A stretch of 64,000 nucleotides of DNA from a virus (taxonomy: Duplodnaviria; Caudoviricetes), in IMG/VR virus record IMGVR_UViG_3300037067_005321, positions 32,001 through 96,000 of that record; one strand, given 5' to 3'. The notes beneath the pieces were generated by a model that saw nothing but the letters and a program-made list of their open reading frames with translations, had not been told where the DNA came from and searched no databases. The translations under genes were made by a program, and so were the position numbers. This document shows positions 2,570 through 23,847 of the stretch, piece after piece. Every line of letters starts with the position of its first letter. The stretch's first letter is position 1.

Positions 2570-2872
2570 TTATTTCTTCCCTCCTTTCCTTTTAAGTTTT
2601 TCTCTAAGTTTCTCCTTCTTTGTTTTTTTGTGCTTTTTCACCTTGTATTGCTTCAATTTTCCTTTAGGCATAGGATCTTTTGTTAAACTTTTTATACGTT
2701 TAACTTTATCAAATTTTATATTCTTAATAGACCTACGTTTTATTATATCACCAGATTTAAGTTCAATAATAAATACTCCATTCTTTATCCCAAGAAGCCT
2801 GGCACGTTGCCATTTATTTCTAGAAGTCCATACCTCAATAACAAATTTCATCTTTCTATAATCTTGATACAT
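2570..2872 (-). CDS. Highly basic hypothetical protein
   Basis: ORF track; Lys/Arg-rich C-terminus; coupled to neighbours. Confidence 0.55.
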   Translation of the reverse strand: MYQDYRKMKFVIEVWTSRNKWQRARLLGIKNGVFIIELKSGDIIKRRSIKNIKFDKVKRIKSLTKDPMPKGKLKQYKVKKHKKTKKEKLREKLKRKGGKK

Positions 2873-3054
2873 TATCTTTTCTTCTTTCTTCTTTTAGATT
2901 GTTTTTGTTTAGATGTTACTTTCTTTCTACGCTTATTCTTTCTAAGATATTCTTTATAACCTTTAGCATGTCCGTGCTCATTATACCATTTACGCCAGAG
3001 ATCAGGATGGTTAATTTTTAAAAATAGTTCTTGTTGTGGACTTGAGAAGGGCAT
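2872..3054 (-). CDS. Small basic phage protein (MPFxSxxQ...HP..W type)
   Basis: N-terminal motif of a kind frequent in phage head modules; basic tail; GGAGG RBS. Confidence 0.55.
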   Translation of the reverse strand: MPFSSPQQELFLKINHPDLWRKWYNEHGHAKGYKEYLRKNKRRKKVTSKQKQSKRRKKKR

Positions 3055-3056
3055 AC

Positions 3057-4079
3057 TTACCTCCTGGCAATCTTTAATCTTCTGGAAATCCAGCTACTTA
3101 GTAGTTTTTTAGCTGTAGATGATATAGGTATACTCATTCCACTGCCACTATCTTTTAATGATACAGATACATCCCCTATGCTAACTGATTTAGCTATAGT
3201 CTTATAACTATTTATATTTTCCATTCCTTCTGATTCTAATAAGAAAATAGCTTGCTCTATCTGAGCTTCTTTAATATTCTTATCTAATGGAACAAATAAT
3301 GCAAACTCTGTACTGGTAGCTGGAATGGATGTAAAAGCCTCTGATACTGTGATAGACCCATTAGACACATTAGAATTACTAACTAATCTTATATCATTAA
3401 GAGGAGTTCCTTCAGTAATATGAATAGTACTATATTTAAACCAATCTGTAGGATATTTACCATAAGTATCTGAATATAAAGAAGTATGTCTAAATGAAGT
3501 AGTCGTTATTGGAGTACTACAATTTCCTGTTATAACATCATGATCATCCCTAGGAAATTCAAGTGATTGTGAGTCATAATATTTATCACCTATAAATTTA
3601 AATCTGTCAATACATTTAGCAGCTTCTACTAATAGTCTTTTTTTACCTTCTATTGACAAAGAGTCCCATTTATTTGAATGACCATATTTATTCATAATAT
3701 AGTTATTAGCTTCAGTTAAAGAAGTGTAGGAATTAGCATTAGGATCACCAAGTTTTGAATTTAAAGTTAAAGAACCAAATACTTCAAAAGTAATATAATG
3801 TGTATAAACATTACTGGCTGTAGTAACTCCTGCTAGTTGAAGTTGATATGTTTCACCGACAGTACCACCTTTTACAGTCACACTAACATTAGTGGCAGTA
3901 ACAGCTTTTGTAGCAACTAGAGAGGTGGTTACATTTGCACCAAGAGAATCAAAAACTGTAGCAGTACATGAACTTATAGTCTCAGTACCAGATAAATCCT
4001 CAGTAAATTTCTTAGTTACTTGAAATCTATCTGTATTCATTTTATAAAAATAATCTACATCATGTGTATATTTTGCCAC
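3057..4079 (-). CDS. Head-tail adaptor (DnaT-like family) fused to extra beta domains
   Basis: ANSYTSL.EA..Y...W...K..LL..A...ID...FIG.K...Q.LEFPR and IKEAQIEQA..L...SIGDVSVS motifs; N-terminal fibre-adaptor-like domain; internal insertion. Confidence 0.7.
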   Translation of the reverse strand: MAKYTHDVDYFYKMNTDRFQVTKKFTEDLSGTETISSCTATVFDSLGANVTTSLVATKAVTATNVSVTVKGGTVGETYQLQLAGVTTASNVYTHYITFEVFGSLTLNSKLGDPNANSYTSLTEANNYIMNKYGHSNKWDSLSIEGKKRLLVEAAKCIDRFKFIGDKYYDSQSLEFPRDDHDVITGNCSTPITTTSFRHTSLYSDTYGKYPTDWFKYSTIHITEGTPLNDIRLVSNSNVSNGSITVSEAFTSIPATSTEFALFVPLDKNIKEAQIEQAIFLLESEGMENINSYKTIAKSVSIGDVSVSLKDSGSGMSIPISSTAKKLLSSWISRRLKIARR

Positions 4080-4502
4080 TTACTCACCTACCATAAGTTC
4101 TTTTATTTCATCTGGTATATTACAAATATGATCAGATGTTTTGACTATTATTTTTTCAAATTTATTTAATAAGTCTATTAAAACTTTATCATTTGTACAA
4201 AGTATTGTTCTTATTCCAGAAGTACCAATATATAAATTCAATTGAAATACTAGTCTATAAATATCTAATCCTTCAGAATAATCTAGATTAGTAATCTTCT
4301 TTATCTTTAACTTTTTACCTATTTTATATAGGTCAAACTGCCTCTGTGCAACTATAGCATCAGAACACAATTTTGGATAATTAATTGAAGGACTATCACT
4401 ACAAATAATAATTATATCATATTCATTATTATCTGAAGTTATAGTGTCAAAGAATTCATAAATCCAGTTATAGCAAGTATATGAAATTATTAATTTTTTC
4501 AT
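4080..4502 (-). CDS. Degenerate PIG-L/LmbE deacetylase-like protein
   Basis: QRQFDLYKIGKKLKIKKITNLDYSEGL resembles the LmbE R..E...A...LG.....L.Y.DG.L segment; lacks HPDD; start at the TAATG-coupled ATG. Confidence 0.35.
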   Translation of the reverse strand: MKKLIISYTCYNWIYEFFDTITSDNNEYDIIIICSDSPSINYPKLCSDAIVAQRQFDLYKIGKKLKIKKITNLDYSEGLDIYRLVFQLNLYIGTSGIRTILCTNDKVLIDLLNKFEKIIVKTSDHICNIPDEIKELMVGE

Positions 4503-5140
4503 TAATATATCCTCTTCAAATCTGAATAGCATTCCCATGGCGTAGCTATTATTCTTTTATCTACAGCTTCTTGACTATTATAAAATATTATTGAATGTTT
4601 CTTTTGGCTAAGACAGACAAAACTTATAAAACCCTCTGGACCAATAAAGAACTCACAATTTTGGGCTAAACAAATTAGATCTCTTATATTAGTCTCACCA
4701 ACTAGATTAACACAATTTCTTACACTTTTATAAATAGGATTATTACCTACTAAAACACATCTAAAATCTTTGTTTTCTTCTATTATAGAATTTACTGAAT
4801 CAATTGAAAATCTTTTACAGTTTCTTCCTTCTAATTTTCCACTATGGGGTTGTAGTATCCAAAATGGTTTATCAAAACAAAATCTATTATGTAAATCAAA
4901 TTGAGGAAAATATTCCATATCTTCATGGCAATCAGCGGTTATCTCTGGAATATCTAATCTAGGTTTTTCTGTGAATTCAAGTTCTATAATGAAAATATTA
5001 TATATTTCTGAAATTGATTGAGCATAGGAAATTGGATCTAAATAAGCAAACACCTTGCATTGTTTTTTTATCTTTATAACTTTTAGGCAATGAATATAAC
5101 TGTCCCCTATCCCCGCTCCAATAGAGGCTAACTCAAACAA
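4502..5140 (-). CDS. GT9 (heptosyltransferase)-like glycosyltransferase
   Basis: GIGD N-terminal motif; NLVGETNIRDL....C..FIGPEG C-terminal motif; likely TTG start after GGAG. Confidence 0.7.
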   Translation of the reverse strand: MFELASIGAGIGDSYIHCLKVIKIKKQCKVFAYLDPISYAQSISEIYNIFIIELEFTEKPRLDIPEITADCHEDMEYFPQFDLHNRFCFDKPFWILQPHSGKLEGRNCKRFSIDSVNSIIEENKDFRCVLVGNNPIYKSVRNCVNLVGETNIRDLICLAQNCEFFIGPEGFISFVCLSQKKHSIIFYNSQEAVDKRIIATPWECYSDLKRIY

Positions 5141-5369
5141 AGTTAATCTCCATATATAAATTATAATCTTCATATAACTCTCCTAAAGTTATATATGAAT
5201 TACCATTTTTGCTACTATTTTCAGAATGCTCTAACATTCTAAGATTAAATGGGTTTCCAATTACTTCTACTGGAACTTTATTTCTAAATCCATCTACTAC
5301 TGAAAATATATGATCAACATGAAATTTACTTTCATCTTTCCATTCTTTACATTTTGTGCATTGTTTCAT
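5133..5369 (-). CDS. Miniature HNH-type endonuclease (probable internal-deletion derivative)
   Basis: CTKC knuckle fused directly to HVDH..DGF....EVI.NPFNL.ML...N.SK, homologous to the C-terminus of 321-1190. Confidence 0.6.
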   Translation of the reverse strand: MKQCTKCKEWKDESKFHVDHIFSVVDGFRNKVPVEVIGNPFNLRMLEHSENSSKNGNSYITLGELYEDYNLYMEINFV

Positions 5370-5408
5370 CTTAATCACTCCCCCCTGATTTATCTCCTCT
5401 TTTATTTA

Positions 5409-5463
5409 ATTATGGCAGGTAGGTGAGGAGTACCTACTTTTTGGGAGCTGCCCTAGCCATAAT
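5409..5463 (-). ncRNA. Structured 5' leader (three-way junction with anti-SD loop), copy 2
   Basis: ATTATGGC-TA-GGG(CAGCT)CCC-AAAAA-GTAGGT(ACTCCTC)ACCTAC-CT-GCCATAAT. Confidence 0.65.
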
Positions 5464-5465
5464 AT

Positions 5466-6332
5466 TTAATTAAAATTAAATTTCTTCCTCCAATCTTCTT
5501 CTTCTAGAATATATTTTGGTATAATATCAGGATGTTTGTCTTTGAACTCAAATGGTTTACCATCTTTATCAGCAATATAACCATCATTAAACCAACAACT
5601 ATTTATACCACTTAATTCTTTATTTAATTTTATGTATTGTTCTTCATTATTAAAGTTATAGTTACGATAGATCTTATCTAACCAATTTACTTTTTTTGAC
5701 TGTGGATTATTAGGATATTCAGTCAACCAAAAATCTAATTTAGAAAAAGGATTGGTTAATAGCCCATAATGAAACATTGTTGGATTTTTAATAGATCCTA
5801 ACATAACAGATTCCTTTTTTGTACAATACCAATTTTGAGTAGGAAAAAATACATTACCATTAATTAAATTTTCTTCATTTATTCTAAATAGTCTCTGATG
5901 TTCCCCTACTAAATATCTATTTGTATTTATAAAGAAATAATAATCTCTAAATGTTATATCAGTATATTTATTTTCTTCAATGATACTCTTTATTTTATTT
6001 ATTATTTCCTGTTTATAAAATTCATCTGCATCTAGAACAAAAATCCAATTTCCAACTTCATAATTTTCTGATCTACTTAACATAAAATTAAGTAAACCAG
6101 CTTTTATAATAGAATGATTGCTTTTATTGTATTTTACATCTATGAACTTAATATGTTTCATATAAGATTTTGCTATATTATATGTCTCATCAACATATTT
6201 TTCTAATATTTCTGAATGAGCAGATACATTTACTATAACTTCATCACAGAATTTTAAGGCTTGCTCAATTGCTAAACCTATGTAATTCTCACAATTCCAA
6301 GCACATAGAAGTCCTATTATTTTAGGCTTCAT
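5466..6332 (-). CDS. GT-A fold (GT2-like) glycosyltransferase
   Basis: AWNCENYI N-terminus, WIFVLDADE DxD motif, MFHYG. Confidence 0.75.
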   Translation of the reverse strand: MKPKIIGLLCAWNCENYIGLAIEQALKFCDEVIVNVSAHSEILEKYVDETYNIAKSYMKHIKFIDVKYNKSNHSIIKAGLLNFMLSRSENYEVGNWIFVLDADEFYKQEIINKIKSIIEENKYTDITFRDYYFFINTNRYLVGEHQRLFRINEENLINGNVFFPTQNWYCTKKESVMLGSIKNPTMFHYGLLTNPFSKLDFWLTEYPNNPQSKKVNWLDKIYRNYNFNNEEQYIKLNKELSGINSCWFNDGYIADKDGKPFEFKDKHPDIIPKYILEEEDWRKKFNFN

Positions 6333-6906
6333 TCTTCTTTTCCTTTATTATGAACCAATCCCAATTTTTTTTAATTATAGAATACTTCAATTCTTCACCA
6401 AATTTATCTACTGCTGTTCTAACACCGACTTCTCTTTTACAGTAATCATGCCCACCAAATATACCACCAAGTTTTACTTTAGGATAATACAAATCAATAT
6501 CTTTTTTAACATCTTCATAAGAATGGGAAGCATCAATATAGCAAAAGTCTACCTTATTATAAATCTTATTTATAGCATTTGCAGACCAATCTTTTATAAA
6601 AACTATTTTATCTTTATAATCTTGAAGTACAAATTTACAAAACTCTTCTATTTCTGGAGTTTCAAATATATCAATAAGATATAACTTTTTTATATCTAAT
6701 TCATCTAGTATTCGTTTAGCATTAACTCCAAACTGAACACCAACCTCAATCCCTACTAAATTAGATTTACCTTTTAATTCATTAAACATTGGCCTATCCT
6801 CAAATATACTGGAATTCATAGATACCATTACATCACTATATCTATTATCCTGTAAGTATTTTAGTAAAGTTTCATTATTTAATTCACTTTTAAGTTCTGG
6901 ATTCAT
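6322..6906 (-). CDS. Class I SAM methyltransferase (Methyltransf_24-like)
   Basis: EVGVQFG, DFCYIDASHSYE.V..D, GG...GHDY. Confidence 0.85.
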   Translation of the reverse strand: MNPELKSELNNETLLKYLQDNRYSDVMVSMNSSIFEDRPMFNELKGKSNLVGIEVGVQFGVNAKRILDELDIKKLYLIDIFETPEIEEFCKFVLQDYKDKIVFIKDWSANAINKIYNKVDFCYIDASHSYEDVKKDIDLYYPKVKLGGIFGGHDYCKREVGVRTAVDKFGEELKYSIIKKNWDWFIIKEKKNEA

Positions 6907-8123
6907 GTATTACACCTCTGATGTGAAACTAATTTATTTTTAAATTCATTATTAAATTCTTTTATTATACTTTTCAATTCATGATTAGTAAAGTTTGGGG
7001 TGGACCAAATATCATTATCATATTCTCCCTGTTTAGACCAATCACAATTTTTAAACTCATCTTGATAATACTTAGTTCCAGGGTAAGGGCAGAGCAAAGT
7101 CATACCAAATATATTAGGATCAGTATCAATAATTAATTGTCTAGTCTCTTCAATAGTCTCTTTTGTTTCTAGTGGATTACCAGTAATATAAAATCCTCTC
7201 ATATCAAGACCAGCTTCTTTACCCCATTTAAAAACATCTCTAATCTTTTGTGGAGTTGTACCTTTATTAATTTCGTTAAGTATTTTCTGGCTTCCAGACT
7301 CACAACCAATTGCTATCTGGTCACAATTGGCTCTTTTTAACAATGATAAAATGTCTTTAGTTATATAAGCAGAATGTAGCATACATTGAAATGGAAGTTT
7401 ATTATCCCTTCTTATTTTTTCTTCACAAAAATCTATAGTTTGTGTACTATCTTTTTCAATCCATGTGGGATCTGCAAATTTAAAATAGTTTATATTATAT
7501 TTCTTTTTGCAATATTCTATTTCATCTAATGTATCATTAACATCTCTATATCTCACATTATTGTGACTCATTTCCTTTTCTCCGCAAATTGCACAGGAGT
7601 GGGAGCACCCTCTTTTAGATACTATAGACAAAATACGCTGATTACAAACTTTTTCACAATAATCTAAATGTCTAGATTCATTAAATAATTCTCTATCAGG
7701 CCAAGATATTTGTGAAAATGGCAACATTTTACCATATATAATTTTACCAGTATTTCCATTTAATACTTCTAATAATCCAGTCTCACCTTCACCAATAATA
7801 ATTTGGTCTACGACTTGATCTGGACTTATCTTTGTGGATGTTACGTGGAATCCACCTAAAACTATTCTAACCTTTTTATTTATAGCTTTTATTTTCTTTG
7901 CTGATTCTATTACTGACTGAAATACACAAGTAGTTGCAGAAAATGCGGCAATATCCGCTTTTGACGTTGCATTAATTATATCTTCTTCTTTATCAAAATT
8001 ACCATGATAAAATTCTATATCTAACTCACCATTATAATTCTTTTTTATATAAGAAGATAAATATCCAGACCATAATGGCTCCCAAATATTATTGTAATAG
8101 TTTTGAATTAAAACTAATTTCAT
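6903..8123 (-). CDS. Cobalamin-binding radical SAM enzyme
   Basis: GGFHVT/GEGE B12-domain motifs; SKRGCSHSCAIC; IGCESGSQKIL. Confidence 0.88.
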   Translation of the reverse strand: MKLVLIQNYYNNIWEPLWSGYLSSYIKKNYNGELDIEFYHGNFDKEEDIINATSKADIAAFSATTCVFQSVIESAKKIKAINKKVRIVLGGFHVTSTKISPDQVVDQIIIGEGETGLLEVLNGNTGKIIYGKMLPFSQISWPDRELFNESRHLDYCEKVCNQRILSIVSKRGCSHSCAICGEKEMSHNNVRYRDVNDTLDEIEYCKKKYNINYFKFADPTWIEKDSTQTIDFCEEKIRRDNKLPFQCMLHSAYITKDILSLLKRANCDQIAIGCESGSQKILNEINKGTTPQKIRDVFKWGKEAGLDMRGFYITGNPLETKETIEETRQLIIDTDPNIFGMTLLCPYPGTKYYQDEFKNCDWSKQGEYDNDIWSTPNFTNHELKSIIKEFNNEFKNKLVSHQRCNT

Positions 8124-9176
8124 TTAAATACTTTCATTAATTATATTACAAATAAATTCAACTTCTTCATCTTTGAGTAAGGGATACACTGGTAAACATA
8201 GAATCCTAGAATAAATATCGTTAGTATTTTTATATCCATTTGCTAGAGGTGTATAATATATTTTAGTTTCTACTCCATTATTTTTTAGATTATTATAAAT
8301 CTTATTTCTAATTTCTTTATTTTCAAGAAGTATACCAAATACAGACCAATTTGTATTACCAACTTTTTGACCAGTACATTCTACTTCTAATAATTCCCAG
8401 TATTTATTTATTATATCTAATCTTCTTTTTTGATTATCTTCAAAGTTTCTAATTGAATTTAAAGCAACAACACAGTGTATCTCAGGAATTTTAGCATACG
8501 TTGTTTCTAATTCCTTGCATACACTAGCTATATCATCATTTTCAGTGAGGATTAGTCCACCTTGTCCCGCAGGTGTGATTTTTGAAAAACTAAGACTAAC
8601 ACATTCAAATATACCTCTATGACCTAAATTTGGCAGATTCCATCCATGAGCAGCATCAATAACTATAAACTTACTATTCTTTTTATCATCTTCTGTTGGT
8701 AAAAATTCATTTCCAAATGTATCTACTGCTAATAGAATATCTGAAGTATATCTAGCATCTTGAAAATTAACTAACCAAGTATCTTTATCTATATCACAAA
8801 ATTCTTTATTATCTATATCAAAATTACAATCTACCGAATAGCTTGAACTATACCAAGTAAATGCTGGAACTGTAACTGAGTTCAGTTTATATCTTCTATT
8901 ATATTCACCTAAATCTATTTCTTTTCTTAATAGTGCTGATGGAACTTGAAATTCTTTACTATATAATTCTTTTAATGCTCTAAATCCTAATATTAAAGCT
9001 GAGGTACAAGTATTACAAGCAACTACATGTTTAACACCAGTTTTCTCTTTAACTATATTTTCTAATTGCTCTGTGAAATTTCCGTTTGCAACTTTACCAC
9101 TCTCAATTATATTCTTTATCTCTTGTAATTCAAAATCTGATAAAACTGTATTCGTTTTACTGTAAGGTATTTTCAT
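8124..9176 (-). CDS. DegT/DnrJ/EryC1/StrS-family sugar aminotransferase
   Basis: VPAFTW, IDAAH, SFSKITPAGQGG, ILCLPVYP. Confidence 0.85.
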   Translation of the reverse strand: MKIPYSKTNTVLSDFELQEIKNIIESGKVANGNFTEQLENIVKEKTGVKHVVACNTCTSALILGFRALKELYSKEFQVPSALLRKEIDLGEYNRRYKLNSVTVPAFTWYSSSYSVDCNFDIDNKEFCDIDKDTWLVNFQDARYTSDILLAVDTFGNEFLPTEDDKKNSKFIVIDAAHGWNLPNLGHRGIFECVSLSFSKITPAGQGGLILTENDDIASVCKELETTYAKIPEIHCVVALNSIRNFEDNQKRRLDIINKYWELLEVECTGQKVGNTNWSVFGILLENKEIRNKIYNNLKNNGVETKIYYTPLANGYKNTNDIYSRILCLPVYPLLKDEEVEFICNIINESI

Positions 9177-10083
9177 TGTAATTACTCACTATATCTAAAA
9201 GTTCTTTCATTTTAATATCCCAAGTATATTCTTTTAACACTCTATTTCTGCCATTTATCCCAATCTGAATTCTTTCTTCTTCAGTTATGGAATTCAGCTT
9301 TTCAACTAAATCTTCTTTACTTGAAAAATAAACTATTTCCTCACAATCTTTAAAATACTTATCTAAAGTATTAGTAGTATCTAAATGAAAAGTACAAGTA
9401 CCACAAGCTAGATATCTAACTAGCCTATTACTAAAATAATCTTTTTTATTATTAAAAGTATTAAGTGATAACATGTAAGTTGAACTAGAACAAATCTTAG
9501 CAAAGTCTTCTTCCACTACTTCATTATCAGAATATCCACTACCATATGTTTTGACATCAAATTTATTAAGTCTAAGAAAATCTATATATTCATCTCGTTC
9601 TTTAGTCTTAGTTCCAATAAAAGAAATATCTACTTTATCTTCTTCAAAAATATCTATAGGTTTAAAGATATCAGTATCTACACCCTGAATAAGATGATGG
9701 CAATTATTAACATATTTTTTTATATCTGGATCTGTATACGATGAAAAATTAGCTAAATTCATTTGTTCTATAACTTCTGAACAGTTTAATAATGTTTCAA
9801 GCGGGTCCATAAAGAATAAAAATGTTTTAGTATATTTGTTACATTCAGACATTATTCTTGGATCAGTATTATTGTGTTTGCAAAATATAGTTAAATATGG
9901 ATTTTGCTCTTTGATTGTATTAATTAGATACTCATAATAAAATTCATGTCCATATTTTGATATAAGTGATCTATAATTTATCGGTATTATATCTAAACTT
10001 AGGTTAATCAATGATTTAGCCATTGGGATTTGTGTAGAACCTTTTTTATCTAGAACACCAACTATACAAATTTTATTATTCAT
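9157..10083 (-). CDS. CgeB-like GT-B glycosyltransferase (Glyco_trans_1_2)
   Basis: GVDTDIFKP, DISFIGT...R, YFSNRLVRYLACG, GRNRVLKEYTW. Confidence 0.82.
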   Translation of the reverse strand: MNNKICIVGVLDKKGSTQIPMAKSLINLSLDIIPINYRSLISKYGHEFYYEYLINTIKEQNPYLTIFCKHNNTDPRIMSECNKYTKTFLFFMDPLETLLNCSEVIEQMNLANFSSYTDPDIKKYVNNCHHLIQGVDTDIFKPIDIFEEDKVDISFIGTKTKERDEYIDFLRLNKFDVKTYGSGYSDNEVVEEDFAKICSSSTYMLSLNTFNNKKDYFSNRLVRYLACGTCTFHLDTTNTLDKYFKDCEEIVYFSSKEDLVEKLNSITEEERIQIGINGRNRVLKEYTWDIKMKELLDIVSNYNENTLQ

Positions 10084-11014
10084 AAATACCTATATTATTC
10101 CATCTATCATATACTTGTTTATCATTAACTATATTTTTTAGTATATTATATAATTCTTTAACTCTATATTTATCTAAATGATGTTTCTGTATTATATTTA
10201 AAGCATTTCTTGTTATTCTATAAATTTCTTTCTTATTCATAGAATATATATCTTTAATTACATCTATTAAATTATTACAATCAGAAGTATATTCTAAGTA
10301 TACTTCTTCTTTACCAAATAATTTTTCTTTTTGTTCTATTTTCGTAGTCAAACACAGTGTTCCACAAGACATTATTTCATATATTTTTGTGGGTGCTTTG
10401 TATAAAGGAGGAAAAGAGCAGGATAAAGCATAATTATATCTTTTTATTGTATCAAAATATAAATCATATCCTATCTCACCAATATAATCAATCATATCAT
10501 TTTGTTCCAATAGTTTCAAAGCTTTTTGTCTAGTAAAATAATATTTATTATTACTATATCTTCCACTACCTACAAATGTTAAAAAGTTAATTCTATTATC
10601 AAGATAATTTGAATCTATATCTATTAATATTTTATCTTCATCCACTGAAAAAGGCAGCCAAACTGAAGGAACTGAATCTGTAATATTTGAATATCTACTT
10701 ATTACAAAATCTATACCATTGTTTATATACCAATTTTTATCATCTAGATCCCAAAAATCTATGTCTATTACTACTTTTGGTATAGTGACACTTTTTAAAT
10801 CAAAATTAAAAAATCTACTTATTGGATATTCTGGAAGTAATAATATATTTGGGTTAACTTCTCTTATTAACGAATTTATATTTTCTAAGTTAGTATGTAT
10901 ATATACATCACAATATTTTCTTAACTTTTTAATAAAGTCAATAGTTGATCTTCTATTAAACGCTAAATTCTGCTTACCATCATGTATATATAATATCTTA
11001 ATATTATTATTCAT
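10076..11014 (-). CDS. GT-B glycosyltransferase (Glyco_trans_1_2-like)
   Basis: WLPFSVD, KIYEIMSCGTL, IQKHH...R. Confidence 0.75.
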   Translation of the reverse strand: MNNNIKILYIHDGKQNLAFNRRSTIDFIKKLRKYCDVYIHTNLENINSLIREVNPNILLLPEYPISRFFNFDLKSVTIPKVVIDIDFWDLDDKNWYINNGIDFVISRYSNITDSVPSVWLPFSVDEDKILIDIDSNYLDNRINFLTFVGSGRYSNNKYYFTRQKALKLLEQNDMIDYIGEIGYDLYFDTIKRYNYALSCSFPPLYKAPTKIYEIMSCGTLCLTTKIEQKEKLFGKEEVYLEYTSDCNNLIDVIKDIYSMNKKEIYRITRNALNIIQKHHLDKYRVKELYNILKNIVNDKQVYDRWNNIGIYE

Positions 11015-11819
11015 AAAATATACAACTAGTTATTGCACCGATATTTTTTATTAATGATGTAAAAAGTAAATTATATTTATTATCAAATAAAGAGAGAAAT
11101 CCACTATGTATACAATCATATTTAAAATTTCTTAAATATCCACAAATACATATATAAGAGTCATTAATACAAAAATCATAAAGTGTATAATCATTACTAA
11201 AATTGATAATAATAGTATTATTTAATAATAATGCTGGTTTTAAATTATTAATTGTATCTGTATTGCATAAAGAATAAATATCATCATTATATATTTCTAC
11301 TCTAGAAGAATTATATCCAACATTTATTCTTTCTATTTCATTTAGATCAAAATCTAATTTAATAATACCACATTCAGAATTAGTTCTATTTGATAAAGAT
11401 CCTACATTTAAATATATATTATCCTTATATTTAGATATATCATTTATATAAATTAATGAATCATTATCACCTTTTATAAAATATCCAAAATCTTTTACCA
11501 ATACAATATTATTATATTTTTTATCTATAGATATTATTTTGTTTCCTTTACTAGAACATACTAATATAATATCCTTGCTAATAGTTACATCTCTTAAAGA
11601 AATAGTGTTATAATCTAAAAACAACTTATTTACTATTTTAAGATTTTTATCAAATTTATGTATAGTGTAATTAGATACTACATATAATTCATTATTATAT
11701 AATGATAAACCATTTATACTTTCATTATTTGTATTAGTAGAATATAAGAAAGATATTTGTTTTGTATTGGTATCAAAGTTATATATTTCACCAATACTTG
11801 TTCCTAATATAATTTTCAT
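11007..11819 (-). CDS. Beta-propeller-like hypothetical protein in glycan island
   Basis: Repeating short beta-strand blades; no catalytic motif recognised. Confidence 0.4.
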   Translation of the reverse strand: MKIILGTSIGEIYNFDTNTKQISFLYSTNTNNESINGLSLYNNELYVVSNYTIHKFDKNLKIVNKLFLDYNTISLRDVTISKDIILVCSSKGNKIISIDKKYNNIVLVKDFGYFIKGDNDSLIYINDISKYKDNIYLNVGSLSNRTNSECGIIKLDFDLNEIERINVGYNSSRVEIYNDDIYSLCNTDTINNLKPALLLNNTIIINFSNDYTLYDFCINDSYICICGYLRNFKYDCIHSGFLSLFDNKYNLLFTSLIKNIGAITSCIFYE

Positions 11820-12364
11820 TATTTCTTCTCAAAAAAGAAGTCCCAATTATTGTGATGAAATCCAATCTGCTTATTAATAGAAAAAGTCATGACCGCTTTC
11901 CTTACTTCACACTCACAAGCATATTCATTCTTGTAGTCATGTCCTGATAAGTACCCACCAACTTTAATTTTAGGCCAATATAACTCTAAATCTTTCTTCA
12001 CATATTCAAAACGATGGTTGCCATCAACATAACATACATCTATAGAATTATCTTTTATTTGACTAGCTACATTTTCTGATAAATCTAATATCCAAGTAAT
12101 TTTAGATTCATATGGTTCTAATAACTTAAATGCTTCATCTTTACATCTTATCCCATCTTTTGCTGCTAATACACCATCACCTAACATATCCCCATATTCA
12201 ATAAAAGGATCAATAAGTATTAATTCCTTTATATCAAGATAATTAAGCATACAAAAAGCATTTTTACCTGATTCTACGCCTATTTCAATTATAGTGAGAT
12301 CTTTTCTATCTATTATATGATTGAAAAAAGGACGATCCAATAACCATTCATTTTTAGTAAACAT
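11819..12364 (-). CDS. Class I SAM methyltransferase (Methyltransf_24-like)
   Basis: EIGVESG, DVCYVDGNHRFE.V..D, GG.LSGHDY. Confidence 0.85.
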   Translation of the reverse strand: MFTKNEWLLDRPFFNHIIDRKDLTIIEIGVESGKNAFCMLNYLDIKELILIDPFIEYGDMLGDGVLAAKDGIRCKDEAFKLLEPYESKITWILDLSENVASQIKDNSIDVCYVDGNHRFEYVKKDLELYWPKIKVGGYLSGHDYKNEYACECEVRKAVMTFSINKQIGFHHNNWDFFFEKK

Positions 12365-12365
12365 A

Positions 12366-12947
12366 TTATCTCTTTCTTAAAATTAGTTCTATTCCACACT
12401 CTGTAGTTGGTAATAAAGTTTGATCTTGTCTTGGTAAATTTAAATAAGTATGATTTAGAAGTTCTATTTTTTCTACTGAAATAATATCTGATAGTTTATC
12501 TATTAATTCTAAAATATTTATAGATTTTGCTCCTACACAAGATATATATTTATTAATTGTAAATGTCCATATATGATTCTTATTAAAAGTACTAGGAAAA
12601 ATACCCTGTTCATAAAGATCTTCATCTGGTACTATAATTACTAAATAACCTCCTGATTTTACTACTCTTATCCAATTACATATTGCTATCCAGAAATCTT
12701 CCATATGTTCTAGACAATGTGAACTATGAAGAAAATTATATGAATTATCTTCTATATTTAATAAATACTGAGCATCACCATTTTCTTTATCATATGAATC
12801 TATACTTTCAACTAATGGAAAAAGTTCTTTATATTGTGATAAAGGATCAGAGCCACAACCAACATCTATACCTTTACCTTTAAAATATAATCTTAGAAAG
12901 TTAGGATTTGATAATCTCCGCATTAATGACTTGCTGCACTCGTGCAT
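12366..12947 (-). CDS. Class I SAM methyltransferase (type 11-like)
   Basis: GIDVGCG, SSHCLEH, VVKSGGYLVIIVPD. Confidence 0.85.
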   Translation of the reverse strand: MHECSKSLMRRLSNPNFLRLYFKGKGIDVGCGSDPLSQYKELFPLVESIDSYDKENGDAQYLLNIEDNSYNFLHSSHCLEHMEDFWIAICNWIRVVKSGGYLVIIVPDEDLYEQGIFPSTFNKNHIWTFTINKYISCVGAKSINILELIDKLSDIISVEKIELLNHTYLNLPRQDQTLLPTTECGIELILRKR

Positions 12948-13694
12948 CTAACCCTCTCTTATCTTTCTTCTATATTCTATTATTGGTTCACCATATTTAC
13001 CATAATATTTATGACAGTTTTCATCATCAATTCCTCTCCATTCTCTTTCTCTTTCAATATTTATATTTCCAATAAAAACAGGAATATTATTCTTATTAAG
13101 AATATATTGAAGTTCCTGATGTGGATTCCAGAATGGAAATGGAGGCATTTCTATTTTTTTTACTTCTTCTATTCTATTACAATATATATCCATATTTTTA
13201 GAAGAACTAAAAGCAAAGAAATCATTTAGTCCACCACCATTATTGGATGCTGGAATAAATATACAACTATTATCTAATTTAGATAAATCATCCAATGGTT
13301 CATTAATATATAAATCTGCTCTACTTCTAATAACCCAATCATACACAAAACCGTTTCGTTTCTCATAATCAGATTTTAAATCATTAGCTCTTTTAATAAA
13401 ATAATACTGTCGTAATACAGCTAAATTAGTACATTCCTCTCCCATTTCTGCTATATGCCTAATATAGGGCATTGGTCCTCTAGCAATAGAATATAAATAT
13501 TCTAAACTAGGATCTTTTGTTAATTCAAGTTCTGTAAAATCTATTTTAACTTTATAAAAATTATCAAGAGAAGAATCATTAGCAAATGAAATAAACACAT
13601 CACAATTATTTGGTTCAATTATATTCTTTACAAACTTATACCAAGTTTTATCTATTCCTCTAGCTTGACCACTTAAACATAATGCAACCCTCAT
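12948..13694 (-). CDS. Putative glycosyltransferase (ALCLSGQ.R family)
   Basis: MRVALCLSGQAR, YDWVIRSRADL, LNDFFA motifs typical of viral GT-like proteins. Confidence 0.6.
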   Translation of the reverse strand: MRVALCLSGQARGIDKTWYKFVKNIIEPNNCDVFISFANDSSLDNFYKVKIDFTELELTKDPSLEYLYSIARGPMPYIRHIAEMGEECTNLAVLRQYYFIKRANDLKSDYEKRNGFVYDWVIRSRADLYINEPLDDLSKLDNSCIFIPASNNGGGLNDFFAFSSSKNMDIYCNRIEEVKKIEMPPFPFWNPHQELQYILNKNNIPVFIGNINIEREREWRGIDDENCHKYYGKYGEPIIEYRRKIREG

Positions 13695-13707
13695 TTACTA
13701 TTTCCTT

Positions 13708-14718
13708 TCATATAAAACTAAAATAATCTTTACTAATTAAATCTTTCATTATTAAATCATATCTGATATATCTACAATCATATAAATTACACTTATTTGG
13801 GTCTATATTTGATATTTTATATTTATGCTCCGCAGATCCCCATATAGACTCAAATGATTTTTCAAATATATTTCCAATCTTCATTTCATCAGGTCTATGT
13901 CTATAATAACAACAGATATAAATATCTCCATAGTAATCAATTAAAGTTTGGATAGTTGATATTTTACATTCTTTATCACATTTAGTAAAATGATCAAAAT
14001 CAATAATTATTTTAGTATTTTGTGGAGTTATACTATCAATAATTTCTTTTATATATTCTTTTTTTCCAAGATCTAAATTTAATGATGAATTAGCTACAGA
14101 TTTAAATTGTATTGAATAAAAACCAACATCATCTGCTATTCTTATAGCTTGTTTTATATCACCACTATAAATATTTGATGTAATTGTATATTTATAAGAA
14201 ACTTGTAGCTTTTCTGGTTTGTCTTTTATAAATTCACTTATATTTCTTAATATATGATTAAAATAATCTGAACCTTTTATTCTCTTAAATTCTTGTGCAG
14301 ATCCTGACTCAAAAGATACTCTAATAAAAGAACAATTGAAAAGAAGTTTATATAATTCTGGTCTAAGCCTTTTATTTATTAGTAATCCATTAGTAACTAA
14401 TCCTATTTTAAATCCTAATTTAAATGCATACTCTAAAAATTCTTCTATTGTTGAAAGCATAAGAGGTTCGCCGCCACCAGATAGTCCTATTCCTTCTACT
14501 CCTATATTTTTACAAGTATCAAGTATATGTTTCCACTCACTAATACTAAGTTCTTTCTTTGGTCCAGAGTTAAGTTCTTTATAATCACAAAAAGTACAAT
14601 TAAACTGACATTTATTAGTTGGATATAATGCTAAGAATCTAGGATATGTAAAAATACCTTTATTTAAGTCCTTTATTTGACTATAATAGCTCAGTATTCT
14701 ATTATCAAATTCTAACAT
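13708..14718 (-). CDS. Radical SAM protein with SPASM/twitch domain
   Basis: CQFNCTFC, SGGGEP, GDIYICC...IGNI....F..IW. Confidence 0.85.
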   Translation of the reverse strand: MLEFDNRILSYYSQIKDLNKGIFTYPRFLALYPTNKCQFNCTFCDYKELNSGPKKELSISEWKHILDTCKNIGVEGIGLSGGGEPLMLSTIEEFLEYAFKLGFKIGLVTNGLLINKRLRPELYKLLFNCSFIRVSFESGSAQEFKRIKGSDYFNHILRNISEFIKDKPEKLQVSYKYTITSNIYSGDIKQAIRIADDVGFYSIQFKSVANSSLNLDLGKKEYIKEIIDSITPQNTKIIIDFDHFTKCDKECKISTIQTLIDYYGDIYICCYYRHRPDEMKIGNIFEKSFESIWGSAEHKYKISNIDPNKCNLYDCRYIRYDLIMKDLISKDYFSFI

Positions 14719-15767
14719 TTTCTTTGTCTTTCTATAGCATCTATTATCATTTCTACTGTTATACTACTCATGCAACTGTTTTCCTTTTTACATTTATCAA
14801 GATAATAACACTCACATTTTTCTACAGGTTCTATTATTTCTCCTAAACCATATAAATAAAATTCATTCTTATTAAAAACATTATTCATTAGTACTATTCG
14901 TTTTTTTAATCCTATTGCTACATGTAAAGCTGAAGTAACTTGTGTAACTATTAAATCACAATTATCTACTAAATTTATAAATTTATTATAAGTTCCATAC
15001 CCTAGATATTTAGCACCACTTAAATCAGATATAACTTTATTAATCTTATCTTCTCTTTCTCCACCAAGAAGAACAACTTCATATCCAGATTCTAGTAATT
15101 TTCTAGATAAATTCTTCCAATTATGTATATCCCAACATCTTGTAGACCATCTTTGTCCATAACCTGTATTTAGTCCTATTACATATTTTGATTTATCTAA
15201 CCAAACTTCTTCTTTTTTAAAAGAAGGTAATATATATTCTTCCCCATTAAACGGTTCTATAAAGATAATATCAAATATTTCTTCTACATAATGTTTAGAA
15301 TTTTCCTTGCTAACTCTATCAAATACACCAGTTTTATATTTATGAAATGCTGATGGTGTACAAACTACAACACCATTTTCTAATCTAAAACCTATCAAAT
15401 TTCTAGACTTTAAACTTTGAGCAAAAGCACAAACTGACATTTCCTTATCTAAATTAATAATAAGATCAAAATTAATATTTCTAAGTATTTCAATACTTTT
15501 AAAATTATAACTTAAACTTTCTATATTATCTGGTAATACCTCTGAATGATTACTTAACCAATAAATCTTAGGATTTTTATATATAGAGAAGAACCTGTGT
15601 AAAATTGGTGTAGTTCTAATTATATCACCAATACCATCTAATTTAACTATCAAAATTCTAGTATCTATTTCTGCATAATAGTTGCAAGAATAACACTCAT
15701 ATCCAAATTCTTTATTATATTTACAAGGTGAATATCCTTTAAAATGAATACAATTAGTTTTTATCAT
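14712..15767 (-). CDS. GT9 ADP-heptose:LPS heptosyltransferase-like protein
   Basis: ILIVKLDGIGDIIRTTP, IGLNTG.G.RW..R.W, VT..TSALHVAIGL; Cys-rich termini. Confidence 0.85.
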   Translation of the reverse strand: MIKTNCIHFKGYSPCKYNKEFGYECYSCNYYAEIDTRILIVKLDGIGDIIRTTPILHRFFSIYKNPKIYWLSNHSEVLPDNIESLSYNFKSIEILRNINFDLIINLDKEMSVCAFAQSLKSRNLIGFRLENGVVVCTPSAFHKYKTGVFDRVSKENSKHYVEEIFDIIFIEPFNGEEYILPSFKKEEVWLDKSKYVIGLNTGYGQRWSTRCWDIHNWKNLSRKLLESGYEVVLLGGEREDKINKVISDLSGAKYLGYGTYNKFINLVDNCDLIVTQVTSALHVAIGLKKRIVLMNNVFNKNEFYLYGLGEIIEPVEKCECYYLDKCKKENSCMSSITVEMIIDAIERQRKC

Positions 15768-17293
15768 TACATAAGTTCTTTCAATATTTGGTTATCTTCT
15801 AATAAAATATTATCACTTACTTTTTTAGTAGTATATCCTTTGAAACACCACGCTTCTAAAGGCTTACAATCTTGGCAAACATCTTTATAAATTACTTCTT
15901 GTATATTGTTTGTAATAACTTTATAAACACCAAATAATTCTGCATCATGCCAAGAAATTAATCCACCATCTTTAACTATAGGATAATAATTAATAGTATC
16001 ACTATTTACACTATTAAAATCATGTCCACCATCAATATAACAAAAATCTACTTGTTCTTGTATATCTTTTATAGCATCATCTGATGTTTTTTCTATCCAA
16101 ATTATTCTATCTTTATACTTCTCTAATTTCTGATATGCTTCTTTTTTCCACTCAATTACATTTTTAAAGTGAGCATAGTCAACATAAGAATCAACCAAAT
16201 ATAACTTCTTTATATCAAGATTTTCTAATATATTTAGAGCATTAGCACCATCAGATACACCAATTTCTATACCTATTAAATCTTTTTTATCTCTTAAAGT
16301 TCTCAAAGATGGCCTGTTAATTGTATCTGGTATTGGCCTTTCATTAAAACATCCTGCTTTCTCTAATTCATATAGAAATGCTGCTATATCAGACATAATA
16401 GTATCTGCATCTATGGCTCTATAATCTGTAACATATCTAAATGAACAAGGAACATTTCCTCGATTGTAATGGGAAATGTGTCTCTCACGTTCATGTCCAA
16501 TTATATAGGAATTACAACCACTTAACATAGATACTGATGTTAAAAAAGATTGGCTAGAGATGGAGCAAACTGAATTATTTAAATATGCTATTATCTTTTC
16601 TAATTTATCCTCACCATTGTAAGATATCAGGTTTATAACATCATTTGATTCAGGATAATCAGCTAGACATGCACCATTAGGTGTACCACCCAATACTATT
16701 AGGAAATCTTCTTTTAATCTATCTACTACTTCTTTCCATACGTATACGGGAACATTCCTATTACTAGCTCTTTCTCTATTTCTAGGAAATATACATATTA
16801 TAGGCTTATTAAAATTTACTATTTGTAAATCTGATTTATACATAGAGAATATCTGTGGCATATTATCAATAATATGATTACAACCACGCGGAGTAAAAAA
16901 TTCTACCGTATTCTCAGAAGTATAATCGTAAAATTGTCTTATATATTCTATAATATCTGAATAAATATCTGGTGGAGTAAGACTACCAGCAGGAGATCCC
17001 TTTTCTACTAATTCATAACAATCTCTATCAAATCTGTCTGAATATACAAACTCAGGTAATGGTAACATCAAATAAGCAAAATCTGAAACAAGACAAGATA
17101 CAGACATATCCATAAATAATATAAATTTATAATCAGGATATTTTTCTTTTTTTAGGAATCGCAGATGCCCAAAAAATTCTTGTATTCCCCACCCAAATTC
17201 ACCGCAAAAGAAACTAACAAATATCTTTTCATCTTTAAGTTTATTTTTTATTTCTTCTGGAGTTCCTTTTTCAAATTCTATAGTTTCAATCAT
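15767..17293 (-). CDS. GT-B-like domain fused to Methyltransf_24 domain
   Basis: N-terminal GEFGW...FPR.R...RN.P...W; C-terminal EIGVSDG, DFCYIDGGH, GG...WHD. Confidence 0.72.
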   Translation of the reverse strand: MIETIEFEKGTPEEIKNKLKDEKIFVSFFCGEFGWGIQEFFGHLRFLKKEKYPDYKFILFMDMSVSCLVSDFAYLMLPLPEFVYSDRFDRDCYELVEKGSPAGSLTPPDIYSDIIEYIRQFYDYTSENTVEFFTPRGCNHIIDNMPQIFSMYKSDLQIVNFNKPIICIFPRNRERASNRNVPVYVWKEVVDRLKEDFLIVLGGTPNGACLADYPESNDVINLISYNGEDKLEKIIAYLNNSVCSISSQSFLTSVSMLSGCNSYIIGHERERHISHYNRGNVPCSFRYVTDYRAIDADTIMSDIAAFLYELEKAGCFNERPIPDTINRPSLRTLRDKKDLIGIEIGVSDGANALNILENLDIKKLYLVDSYVDYAHFKNVIEWKKEAYQKLEKYKDRIIWIEKTSDDAIKDIQEQVDFCYIDGGHDFNSVNSDTINYYPIVKDGGLISWHDAELFGVYKVITNNIQEVIYKDVCQDCKPLEAWCFKGYTTKKVSDNILLEDNQILKELM

Positions 17294-17325
17294 TAATTAT
17301 AACCTTTCTATTGTTTACTTTCTAT

Positions 17326-17373
17326 AATATAAACATTATATACTATTTGTCAAGGGGTAAAGTGAAAATAATT
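17326..17373 (-). promoter_or_regulatory. Promoter of the glycan island (16-bp-spacer family)
   Basis: TTGACA-N16-TATATT; 29 bp (17345-17373) identical to 39105-39133. Confidence 0.7.
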
Positions 17374-17382
17374 TAAATTATT

Positions 17383-17769
17383 TTATAAATTATCCTTAAC
17401 ATATCTCTTATGATATGCATTTTTTGCACCTAAACATACTCCATAATACATTGGGTATCTAATATATACTGGTTTATTTCTAACAGTCATAGCTTCAAGA
17501 AATACTTTATTACTTATCTCAAAAGATACTATAGGAATACTATCTATTCTAAAAATGTAATCATGTATTACTGCTTCTCTATGTGCTCTATCACCAAATA
17601 AAGAATATATAATTGGAAGTCTGGGGACACTAGCAAAATCAGTTTGAAAATCTACTGGAACTTCAATTCTTCCTACTAAATCAGATTCATAAATTAATGG
17701 AGCATCTAAAATCCAGATCTTATCATTATCTAAAAGAGTTATTTTTAACTGAGTTAAAAATCTTGCCAC
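17383..17769 (-). CDS. DUF1353-family protein
   Basis: VP..F.TDFASVPR, AVIHDY, FLEAM; usual neighbour of lysis genes. Confidence 0.8.
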   Translation of the reverse strand: MARFLTQLKITLLDNDKIWILDAPLIYESDLVGRIEVPVDFQTDFASVPRLPIIYSLFGDRAHREAVIHDYIFRIDSIPIVSFEISNKVFLEAMTVRNKPVYIRYPMYYGVCLGAKNAYHKRYVKDNL

Positions 17770-17861
17770 TATTTATCAACTTCTTTTTTCTTCTTTAATC
17801 TCAAAATTTCTAATATAAGAGTAACTAGTGTTATAGCTTTATCAATAGGTATTCTAGCCAT
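17769..17861 (-). CDS. 30-aa peptide MARIPIDKAITLVTLILEILRLKKKKEVDK (not in ORF track)
   Basis: Fills the gap between holin-like and DUF1353 genes, overlapping both. Confidence 0.4.
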   Translation of the reverse strand: MARIPIDKAITLVTLILEILRLKKKKEVDK

Positions 17862-18072
17862 TTTGTACTTCCTTTAGCTCTTTTTCTCTTTTAGATGCTC
17901 TCCACTTTCCATATATAGCAATGCCAATACCTGCAAGAGTTATTATAACATTTATAAGACTTGCTTGTTCCTCAGAACTGAGTTCTATACCACATAAATT
18001 AAGTATTTGTGGTACTAGAGCTATAACAAGACCACTATATGTAATCTTACCCTGTAATATTTGCTGGCTCAT
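17854..18072 (-). CDS. Putative holin
   Basis: 72 aa, two hydrophobic segments, AIYGKWRA plus basic C-tail; next to endolysin. Confidence 0.6.
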   Translation of the reverse strand: MSQQILQGKITYSGLVIALVPQILNLCGIELSSEEQASLINVIITLAGIGIAIYGKWRASKREKELKEVQNG

Positions 18073-18085
18073 TTAATATCACTTC

Positions 18086-18553
18086 CTATAAATATAATTT
18101 AGCTATTAATTTTTCACTTTCTAAAAATGAAAGTATTATATCAAAATCTACTTCTTCAAAATTTACATTTATTAATTCACCAGATAAAGTTCCTGGTTGT
18201 ATAATTTCCATAGCAGCAATAACTTTAGGTGAGAATAATTTTAATTTAGCATTAATATAATTAACTGCATCAAGATATGTTAATTTAATATTATCTCTTT
18301 TAACTGTATTTATATCATTTTCTATACTATTTATTACTTTTATAATATCCTTTGCAGATATTTCTTTACCTTCTAAACCAGCTACTGTGCCTATTTTTAT
18401 TATTTTACCTACTTTATCTAAAGTAACTCCTTTTTCATTCGCTATTTTTGATAAAACAGAATTAGAAGTATCTGTATCAACCAAATTTACAGAGTTTAAT
18501 GAGCAACTAGCACAAAATATTAAAGTTGCTATTAATATAATTAATTTATACAT
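18086..18553 (-). CDS. Putative lipoprotein (lysis accessory/spanin-like)
   Basis: Signal MYKLIILIATLIFCASC with lipobox-like Cys. Confidence 0.5.
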   Translation of the reverse strand: MYKLIILIATLIFCASCSLNSVNLVDTDTSNSVLSKIANEKGVTLDKVGKIIKIGTVAGLEGKEISAKDIIKVINSIENDINTVKRDNIKLTYLDAVNYINAKLKLFSPKVIAAMEIIQPGTLSGELINVNFEEVDFDIILSFLESEKLIAKLYL

Positions 18554-18574
18554 ATTTATTCTCCTTTTATATAA

Positions 18575-18913
18575 TTATTTTTCATCAAAACTATAATGAT
18601 TTCCATCTTTAAATCTTCCCCCCCAAGAACATCTTGGATGAAGAGATTCCCAATATTCACCAAATTGTTTATGTGCTTCTGTGGTAGTTTGATATACTTT
18701 ATTAATATATAAAAGTATATCCATAGCAAGACCTAATTCATGCTTACTACCAACTTTGTGATTAGTAGTAGGTGCTTTTTTTGTTCTATGAATTGTACCT
18801 TCATCAAAAACTGCTTCATACCCTGGTATAGAATTCATATAATCAATCTGTTTACATATTAATTTTGTAAATAGACATCTATCTTCTCTTAAACTCATTT
18901 TATAAATCTCCAA
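18575..18913 (-). CDS. M15-family peptidase endolysin
   Basis: SKHELGLAMD and WGGRFKDGNHYS Zn-binding motifs. Confidence 0.85.
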   Translation of the reverse strand: MEIYKMSLREDRCLFTKLICKQIDYMNSIPGYEAVFDEGTIHRTKKAPTTNHKVGSKHELGLAMDILLYINKVYQTTTEAHKQFGEYWESLHPRCSWGGRFKDGNHYSFDEK

Positions 18914-19037
18914 ATATGTTTTTCATATAAAATACCAAGTCTTTTAGCCAAATATTTATGAATACCTATATTTCTAAGTCTACAATAAATATGAAGTGGA
19001 TTTAGAAAATGACTTAATAAGCTATTCATATTATTGT

Positions 19038-19421: not shown

Positions 19422-19438
19422 TGTAATAATCCTCCGGG

Positions 19439-23838: not shown

Positions 23839-23847
23839 AATATCACC

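Follow-up and report, generated by a model that had tools for sequence, protein, structure and literature searches.

Two questions arise when a tailed phage carries enzymes of glycan synthesis among the genes of its particle: which molecule is glycosylated, and what kind of glycan is made. Such a locus has been found in the DNA analysed in this work, a stretch of 64,000 nucleotides (referred to as the window) which corresponds to bases 32001-96000 of the IMG/VR virus record IMGVR_UViG_3300037067_005321, a genome of 135,715 bp with direct terminal repeats and a G+C content of 28.5%. The locus, called here the island, consists of 16 consecutive minus-strand open reading frames (ORFs) running from position 17293 down to position 4080 of the window; 15 of them are intact genes for soluble enzymes and one is the remnant of an HNH endonuclease. 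A sequence-only reading of the same DNA had drawn a glycan island at 4080-17373, in which the ORFs and domains have now been located, and had offered three targets for it: virion proteins, the core of the host lipopolysaccharide (LPS), and DNA.

We favour, with moderate confidence, the view that the enzymes of the island act in the cytoplasm to glycosylate a protein that is encoded by the phage and probably associated with its capsid, and that tailoring takes place on the glycan. Six features point to a phage protein acceptor that is made together with the heads and necks: a soluble enzyme kit in the late operon, at a fixed head-neck position and conserved to the same degree as the capsid, and a virus-only core surrounded by a hypervariable shell with no membrane or export step. 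Among the three targets originally offered the comparative data favour virion proteins; the LPS core is a possible one, and DNA has lost support, as the genome encodes no ThyA and the island belongs to a late structural operon.

An island fixed between the head and neck genes

The relatives of the window phage are fragmentary IMG/VR contigs, 16 of which were found with the domain of the first island gene as a query and 36 with the major capsid protein (MCP). In all 16 contigs of the first set the gene for a glycosyltransferase of GT9 fold directly follows the same head module (TerL-portal-scaffold-MCP and small head genes), so that the survey of synteny with head-neck genes suggested by the sequence-only reading placed the island at the head-neck junction throughout. 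Starting from the capsid gives the same picture: this core gene is present in 15 of the 15 MCP-matched contigs that extend at least about 5 kb past the MCP gene, the others ending too early to tell, and no clear counter-example, reaching past the MCP gene yet lacking the island, was met among the 36. The downstream boundary is likewise conserved, as the island ends at the head-tail adaptor Ad1 in contigs L085, L091, L093, L096, L098 and L122. A gene for a protein of LmbE fold, which closes the island of the window, lies directly before Ad1 in L085 and L096; extra small ORFs separate the two genes in L091 and L093, and in L098 and L122 the island reaches the adaptor without any LmbE-fold gene. 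Island proteins are 42-69% identical to their counterparts, the MCP 52-64% and the portal about 40-58%.

The late genes of the window occupy its minus strand, starting at about 39 kb, reaching position 1 and running on past the window end. Their order starts with large terminase, portal, scaffold, a 160-aa protein, MCP and a homing-type endonuclease, followed by four small head-module proteins (89, 198, 114 and 130 aa), a membrane protein and five signal-peptide proteins. A lysis cassette (M15 endolysin/peptidase, lipoprotein, holin and DUF1353 protein) precedes the island; Ad1, small neck genes, Neck1/tail completion and an HNH endonuclease follow it, and large tail genes encoding up to 2,399 aa lie beyond the window. 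The position between the lysis cassette and the adaptor, noted from the outset, has thus been borne out by ORF and domain calls.

Within the island the junctions measure, in transcription order, -1, -7, 13, 0, 1, -1, -8, -8, -20, 0, -4, -11, 87, -41, -37 and 0 nt. The 87 nt before the HNH remnant are the sole sizeable gap, and the larger overlaps (-41 and -37) also flank this remnant; since the last junction is 0 nt, the stop codon of the gene at 4080-4538 abuts the adaptor start codon. No convincing terminator was detected inside the island. With such tight junctions and no internal terminator, the island sits in the late transcript between the head/lysis and the neck/tail genes. A promoter of its own had also been claimed. 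The best sigma-70-like match (11/12) in the region 2800-19200 does lie in the 89-nt gap ahead of the first gene (17324-17353, minus strand; TTGACA, 16-18 nt, TATATT/TATTAT), but the total count of sigma-70-like matches in this 16-kb region is not above that in shuffled sequences. An 11/12 match upstream of the first gene occurs only in the window phage and L099, most relatives having none there, and a dedicated promoter was rejected as a feature of the lineage.

The possibility that the island is a recent or decaying copy of a host LPS locus was also rejected: its ORFs are intact and overlapping, its G+C content of 0.26 compares with 0.285 for the genome, and it is conserved across the lineage. 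Moreover, 80 cellular loci holding a homologue of one of its glycosyltransferases (see below) contain none of the other island genes.

Virus-only core enzymes and a shell of changing content

The first island gene (15767-17293, minus strand) encodes a protein of 508 aa in which a glycosyltransferase domain (aa 1-325) is fused to a Methyltransf_24 domain (aa 342-450). Residues 1-325 have no Pfam match, and in particular none to PF01075 above the curated cut-off. Their AF2 model (pLDDT 90.9) was matched in VIA to WaaF (1psw, Z 18.6), a Veillonella GT9 enzyme (3tov, 18.0), WaaC (2h1f, 16.6) and TibC (4rap, 15.1), other GT-B families scoring Z of at most 11.5; as modelled, the domain is a GT-B fold closest to GT9 enzymes of the WaaC/WaaF type. 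Identity to the GT9 structures is about 10-13%, profile-profile comparison with the accessory, cysteine-containing GT9 family (GT9cys) described below gave an E value of only 0.002, and a sequence-only search of the PDB with the fusion protein returned nothing useful. No match at E 1e-3 was obtained by tblastn with this domain against 50,697 GenBank phage records. The earlier proposal that the glycan contains heptose is not supported, since the GT9 fold does not fix the donor; genes for ADP-heptose were not searched for.

The second core gene (9157-10083, minus strand) encodes a CgeB-like glycosyltransferase of 308 aa assigned by Pfam (Glyco_trans_1_2); a second copy of 312 aa, assigned in the same way, is encoded at 10076-11014 (minus strand). 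The GT9-fold family comprises 67 clusters of 46-69% identity, in which the domain is stand-alone or fused to Methyltransf_24, and the CgeB-like core family comprises 43 clusters of 42-56% identity that form a separate, tight clade. Two database searches retrieved both core families from metagenomic or viral contigs only, each of at most 144 kb and none with a bacterial name.

A different origin is evident for the accessory GT9 glycosyltransferase (351 aa; 14712-15767, minus strand; PF01075, E 2.4e-13). Homologues 45-48% identical to it are encoded in at least 527 species genomes, mostly of Bacteroidota and Ignavibacteriota, where they sit in envelope-glycan clusters between genes for GT2, GT4, a YfhO-like membrane protein and methyltransferases; no other island gene was found near them in 80 loci. 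A sequence-only PDB search with this protein was not informative. With a virus-only core and a cellular accessory GT9, the shell borrows from cellular envelope-glycan clusters and the core is the phage's own. Seven cysteines of the accessory enzyme (C6, C15, C25, C28 and C318, C320, C326) are invariant or nearly so in an alignment of 20 sequences; these clusters suggest a putative metal or Fe-S site, one not described for WaaC/WaaF.

The same gene makes it necessary to consider that the soluble transferases may extend or edit a host envelope glycan at the inner membrane face, the host initiating transferase, flippase and ligase completing the route. The target would then be the lipid A-core, an undecaprenyl-linked O-antigen or capsule unit, or the lipid-linked donor of protein O-glycosylation, and the outcome either an altered cell surface or glycans on the five exported phage proteins whose genes lie upstream. 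We regard this explanation as doubtful; what keeps it under serious consideration is the GT9 fold together with the descent of the accessory GT9 from cellular genes. The GT9 family is that of the LPS-core enzymes, WaaF, the Veillonella enzyme and WaaC give the best fold matches of the core domain, and signal-peptide proteins rich in Ser, Thr and Asp are encoded directly upstream of the island. Against it stands the lack of cellular relatives of the two core transferases, as well as the absence of the remaining island genes from the surroundings of cellular GT9. Expression from the late operon, just before lysis, would leave little time for a surface change to matter, and most relatives keep the island without an adjoining exported module.

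The membrane steps of such a route are missing as well. No hydrophobic or transmembrane segment is present in any island ORF of the window and no polytopic membrane protein among the 139 island ORFs of the 16 relatives, two small ORFs of which have a signal-like N-terminus. This agrees with the contrast to serotype-conversion cassettes drawn in the sequence-only reading. Neither flippase and polymerase nor ligase and initiating transferase (Gtr, Wzx/Wzy, WaaL, PGT) are represented among the 25 commonest Pfam families of the islands, and genes for these four functions occur in 0 of the 16.

The content of the shell differs greatly between relatives. The smallest island, that of L122, has only three genes immediately ahead of the adaptor, which encode the GT9-fold enzyme, a CgeB-like enzyme and a short GT9-like protein. 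In L091 and L093 most of the shell is replaced by a single protein of 1,002 aa (L091:11826-14834) or 852 aa (L093:11899-14457); the former combines GT9-like, SAM (S-adenosylmethionine) methyltransferase and radical SAM domains, and the latter aligns with it at 46% identity. Radical SAM chemistry is thus physically tied to a glycosyltransferase in the L091 fusion. Among the extra genes of L085 are those for a polysaccharide pyruvyl transferase, a PglD-like acetyltransferase and a GNAT/Fem-like protein, and across the other islands the shell enzymes include methyl-, acetyl-, pyruvyl- and sulfotransferases, APS kinase, DegT and radical SAM enzymes. A Pfam census of the 139 ORFs counted Glyco_trans_1_2 (23), Methyltransf_24 (16), GT9 (11), radical SAM (9), DegT (7), GT2 (6), TylF, hexapeptide transferases, nucleotidyltransferases, sulfotransferases and GT8 (3 each) and APS kinase (2). 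Judged from gene content, a conserved core with a swapped shell suggests the pattern typical of an exposed, diversifying glycan.

Of about seven glycosyltransferase-like domains originally counted in the window, five are well supported: the GT9-fold domain, the accessory GT9, the two CgeB-like enzymes and a GT2 enzyme (288 aa; 5466-6332, minus strand) with its DAD motif present. The other two are tentative. In the 223-aa protein (4502-5173, minus strand), described as a second GT9-like enzyme, a donor-domain motif was recognized by eye, but hhalign gave an E value of only 0.12; a 42%-identical counterpart exists in L098, and GT9-like ORFs of similar size in the islands of relatives fall just below the Pfam cut-off. 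The 248-aa protein beginning with MRVALCLSGQ (12948-13694, minus strand) exists as described and belongs to Pfam DUF7796; a sequence-only PDB search with it gave nothing useful, and it is a putative glycosyltransferase at most. A protein of 270 aa (11007-11819, minus strand) has no family match and a 25%-identical counterpart in the island of L100.

Proposed tailoring chemistry and candidate acceptors

The remaining enzymes of the window island would modify sugars. Four SAM methyltransferase domains, two radical SAM enzymes and a DegT aminotransferase had been read from the sequence, and all were found. Besides the Methyltransf_24 domain of the first gene, the methyltransferases are two further Methyltransf_24 proteins of 181 aa (11819-12364) and 194 aa (6322-6906) and one Methyltransf_23/11 protein of 193 aa (12366-12947), all assigned by Pfam and encoded on the minus strand. 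The radical SAM enzymes, a SPASM-type protein of 336 aa (13708-14718, minus strand) and a B12-binding protein of 406 aa (6903-8123, minus strand), both match PF04055, the pair of scores being 57.2 and 65.2 bits, and both contain the CX3CX2C motif (CSHSCAIC in one, CQFNCTFC in the other). The PDB matches of the former include the sugar-acting BlsE and DesII, and the closest solved relative of the latter is AprD4. The DegT-family aminotransferase, dependent on pyridoxal phosphate (350 aa; 8124-9176, minus strand), has its Schiff-base Lys in SFSK and a DAAH motif; its closest solved relatives are scyllo-inositol and 3-oxo-glucose-6-phosphate transaminases (NtdA), whose substrates are keto-sugars or inososes. 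The solved relatives of DegT and of the B12 enzyme act on free or glycosidic sugars, not on nucleotide-linked ones, which together with the lack of a 4,6-dehydratase suggests that tailoring may take place after transfer. Both the NAD-dependent epimerase/dehydratase family (PF01370) and the sugar nucleotidyltransferase family (PF00483) are absent from the genome, with positive controls; without genes for sugar-nucleotide synthesis the phage must use host sugar nucleotides.

The company of these tailoring enzymes could be read differently, as AprD4, scyllo-inositol transaminase/NtdA and BlsE belong to pathways of aminoglycoside or nucleoside antibiotics: the island might make a free small molecule, for example an aminoglycoside-like pseudo-oligosaccharide, or it might hypermodify phage DNA with sugars. 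Phage glycosyltransferases that glycosylate DNA are known, as cited in a passage of PMC12619734. We nevertheless hold either version to be very improbable, and DNA modification in particular unlikely. A ThyA-like pyrimidine hydroxymethylase (PF00303), which would mark the usual route to glycosylated bases, is absent from the 135.7-kb genome, with positive controls, other base-activating routes not having been searched for; the island lies in the structural operon, not in the replication arm; it contains no cyclitol synthase, kinase or export gene; and a set of six to seven transferases combined with hypervariable tailoring is more in keeping with a surface glycan than with a metabolite.

The last island gene (4080-4538, minus strand) encodes a 152-aa protein of LmbE/PIG-L fold, identified by fold search only, as the profile of its family has no match among PDB sequences. 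Its model (pLDDT 90.4; Foldseek E 4.7e-6) has LmbE-family proteins as all of its top seven VIA matches (Z 13.5-10.5), the best being diacetylchitobiose deacetylase (Z 13.5, root-mean-square deviation 2.3 A over 142 residues). The AHPDD/HxxH zinc site is absent, ISYTCYNW standing at the AHPDD position, and only C58 and Q65 are invariant among 44 aligned homologues, with no conserved His. The designation "LmbE-like" therefore stands for the fold but not for a deacetylase active site. The family forms 111 clusters at 50% identity, all of small stand-alone proteins.

How could these enzymes work together on a phage protein? In the scheme that we prefer, the glycan would be started on a conserved acceptor by the first gene's GT9-fold domain together with the core CgeB-like enzyme, both drawing on the sugar nucleotides of the host, and the swappable transferases (GT9, GT2 and the second CgeB-like enzyme) would elongate it. 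The tailoring enzymes would act on the growing glycan instead of on nucleotide sugars: the four methyltransferase domains are likely O-methyltransferases, the radical SAM-SPASM enzyme with DegT would convert a hydroxyl through a keto sugar to an amine, and the AprD4-like enzyme would carry out deoxygenation or C-methylation. The most likely acceptor would be exposed on the surface of the head or neck; among the proteins to consider are the small ones of the head module that are rich in Ser and Thr and whose genes lie just upstream. The 130-aa protein (24655-25047, minus strand), a Ser/Thr-rich beta-sandwich, is a candidate: in most relatives its gene is the final conserved one of the head module ahead of the island, it carries variable Ser/Thr-rich loops on a conserved frame and its language-model neighbours are viral. 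A weak match to the capsid cement protein Bbp16 is taken as a lead only.

In its fullest form the proposal states that the lineage builds, in the cytoplasm, a complex glycan on a head or neck protein that is already assembled. This glycan would carry methyl and amino groups and, in relatives, also sulfate, pyruvyl or acetyl groups; it would be started by a virus-only protein glycosyltransferase of GT9 fold and edited by radical SAM enzymes after attachment. This version, with all its parts, is put forward tentatively.

Several facts weigh against a capsid-associated acceptor. The position inside the structural operon is circumstantial evidence, and the lineage is without any cultured member. 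The match of the core domain to TibC, a protein heptosyltransferase, is weaker (Z 15.1) than those to WaaF (18.6) and WaaC (16.6), so that the fold gives no reason to prefer a protein as acceptor; the lipid A-core is the classical substrate of GT9-fold enzymes, and an origin in the envelope-glycan clusters of cells is clear for the accessory GT9. The glycans of mycobacteriophages sit on capsid C-termini, but the MCP of the window lacks the short C-terminal Ser/Thr tail present in 8 of 9 aligned MCPs of relatives. Finally, the five exported Ser/Thr-rich proteins encoded just upstream may be the real targets, or may hint at a periplasmic or envelope role. As to the MCP tails themselves, they consist of Ser, Thr and Ala (e.g. 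NISTS, NIASS, NTSSS) and are missing from the window phage and L102.

The exported proteins enter a further explanation, in which the enzymes would glycosylate non-capsid phage proteins in the cytoplasm: either these exported fibre- or lectin-like proteins before Sec export, comparable to the heptosylation of autotransporters by TibC/AAH, or tail fibres. Their genes lie immediately upstream of the island, an exported module of this kind exists also in L091 and L093, and the core enzyme does have a fold match to TibC at Z 15.1. On the other hand, TibC is not the best fold match, and most relatives that keep the core enzymes have no exported module between their head genes and the island. We consider this explanation improbable and retain the head or neck protein as the preferred acceptor. 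The module itself (19038-24219, minus strand) encodes five successive proteins rich in Thr, Ser, Gly and Asp with cleavable-looking signal peptides, and its G+C content reaches up to 0.42 as compared with 0.27 in the surroundings; the similar modules of L091 and L093 are located elsewhere within the head genes.

Genome setting and relation to known systems

The adaptor Ad1 that bounds the island downstream (3057-4079, minus strand) has 340 aa in the window phage, L091 and L093 and about 237-246 aa in L085, L096, L098 and L122. The additional ~100 residues of the long form are N-terminal and rich in Thr, Ser and Val, and resemble an added beta domain. As the sole query in IMG/VR the adaptor protein retrieved no relative, and no close DNA relatives were found among GenBank phages, the best MCP match being 30% identical. 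The similarity of the 81-aa ORF between the GT2 gene and the gene for the 223-aa protein (5133-5378, minus strand) to the HNH-type endonuclease encoded at 321-1190 (phrog_23051/5104) is confined to the C-terminal part of the latter; the ORF resembles a selfish insertion that has been truncated, and stands outside the pathway. Sequence matches to the MCP gene are split into two or three separate pieces in L085, L091, L093, L094, L127, L128 and L130-L132, and those to the TerL gene in L110, L115, L118, L130, L133 and L136. These splits, often with HNH/endonuclease ORFs around, suggest that essential structural genes of the lineage may be interrupted by introns or inteins or by inserted homing endonucleases.

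The window contains no tRNA genes. A strong Shine-Dalgarno-like 5-mer precedes 56% of the 130 genes of the whole genome, as compared with 5% of random windows, and a lipoprotein gene occupies a spanin-like position between endolysin and holin; together they suggest a diderm host with Shine-Dalgarno-led initiation. The homologues of the accessory GT9 hinted at Bacteroidia, but strong Shine-Dalgarno use is unusual in phages of this class and argues against such a host.

To our knowledge, virion glycosylation by phage-encoded enzymes has been demonstrated experimentally only in actinobacteriophages, with a few transferases. If our interpretation is correct, it would be extended to an unrelated, widespread environmental lineage with much richer chemistry. 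The core/shell pattern suggests that the glycan may be under diversifying selection, a matter that concerns how stable the particles are, how they adsorb and how hosts or grazers recognize them. Two virus-only glycosyltransferase families that are still uncharacterised, and their degenerate LmbE-fold partner, are concrete targets for biochemistry. The proposal that radical SAM and DegT enzymes aminate and deoxygenate the glycan itself, in a phage devoid of nucleotide-sugar genes, lends itself to biochemical testing.

The island differs from other glycan loci in its setting and in its enzymes. Serotype-converting phage cassettes (Gtr, Wzx/Wzy) and cyanophage LPS clusters, with which it has glycan enzymes in common, either encode membrane proteins or are located away from the structural operon, whereas the island has no membrane proteins and sits between head and neck genes. 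WaaC, WaaF and TibC possess the same GT-B fold as the core domain, but the latter is only ~10-13% identical to them, is not recognized by PF01075 and is confined to viral/metagenomic contigs. The Glyco_trans_1_2 domain links the core CgeB-like enzyme to CgeB of Bacillus subtilis, a soluble enzyme of poorly defined mechanism that is thought to glycosylate the spore crust, a protein shell that forms in the cytoplasm of the mother cell; the enzymes of the phage family make up a separate clade.

Passages on Freeman et al. 2023 in PMC12363180 and PMC12619734 describe phage glycosyltransferases that modify particle proteins in the mycobacteriophages Che8, Corndog and Myrna, and the same passages report a proposal that the glycan shields the particle. 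There too the glycosyltransferase genes reside on the phage genome and their products are cytoplasmic; in the island phage they are embedded in the virion structural module. The mycobacteriophage cassettes encode a few transferases as compared with the 15 enzyme genes of the island, which include two radical SAM enzymes, four methyltransferase domains and an aminotransferase. Their glycan has been demonstrated, whereas the island phage is known from its genes alone; the host of the latter is not an actinobacterium, and its core transferase has no sequence homology to known phage transferases (tblastn, 50,697 records).

In chloroviruses, virus-encoded cytoplasmic enzymes build the capsid glycan, and A064R is a glycosyltransferase-glycosyltransferase-methyltransferase fusion (PMC7826918). 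PBCV-1 (A064R, A111/114R; PMC7826918, PMC9614988) resembles the island phage in having its own soluble cytoplasmic enzymes, fusions of glycosyltransferase and methyltransferase, methylated sugars, and a conserved core with variable outer parts. It differs in being a eukaryotic giant virus with unrelated enzyme families and without radical SAM tailoring, and the island forms one operon in the head-neck module of a tailed phage. If glycosylation of a virion protein is indeed its function, bacterial viruses would possess in the island an equivalent of the capsid glycosylation of chloroviruses, and radical SAM chemistry on the glycan would have been met in a new setting.

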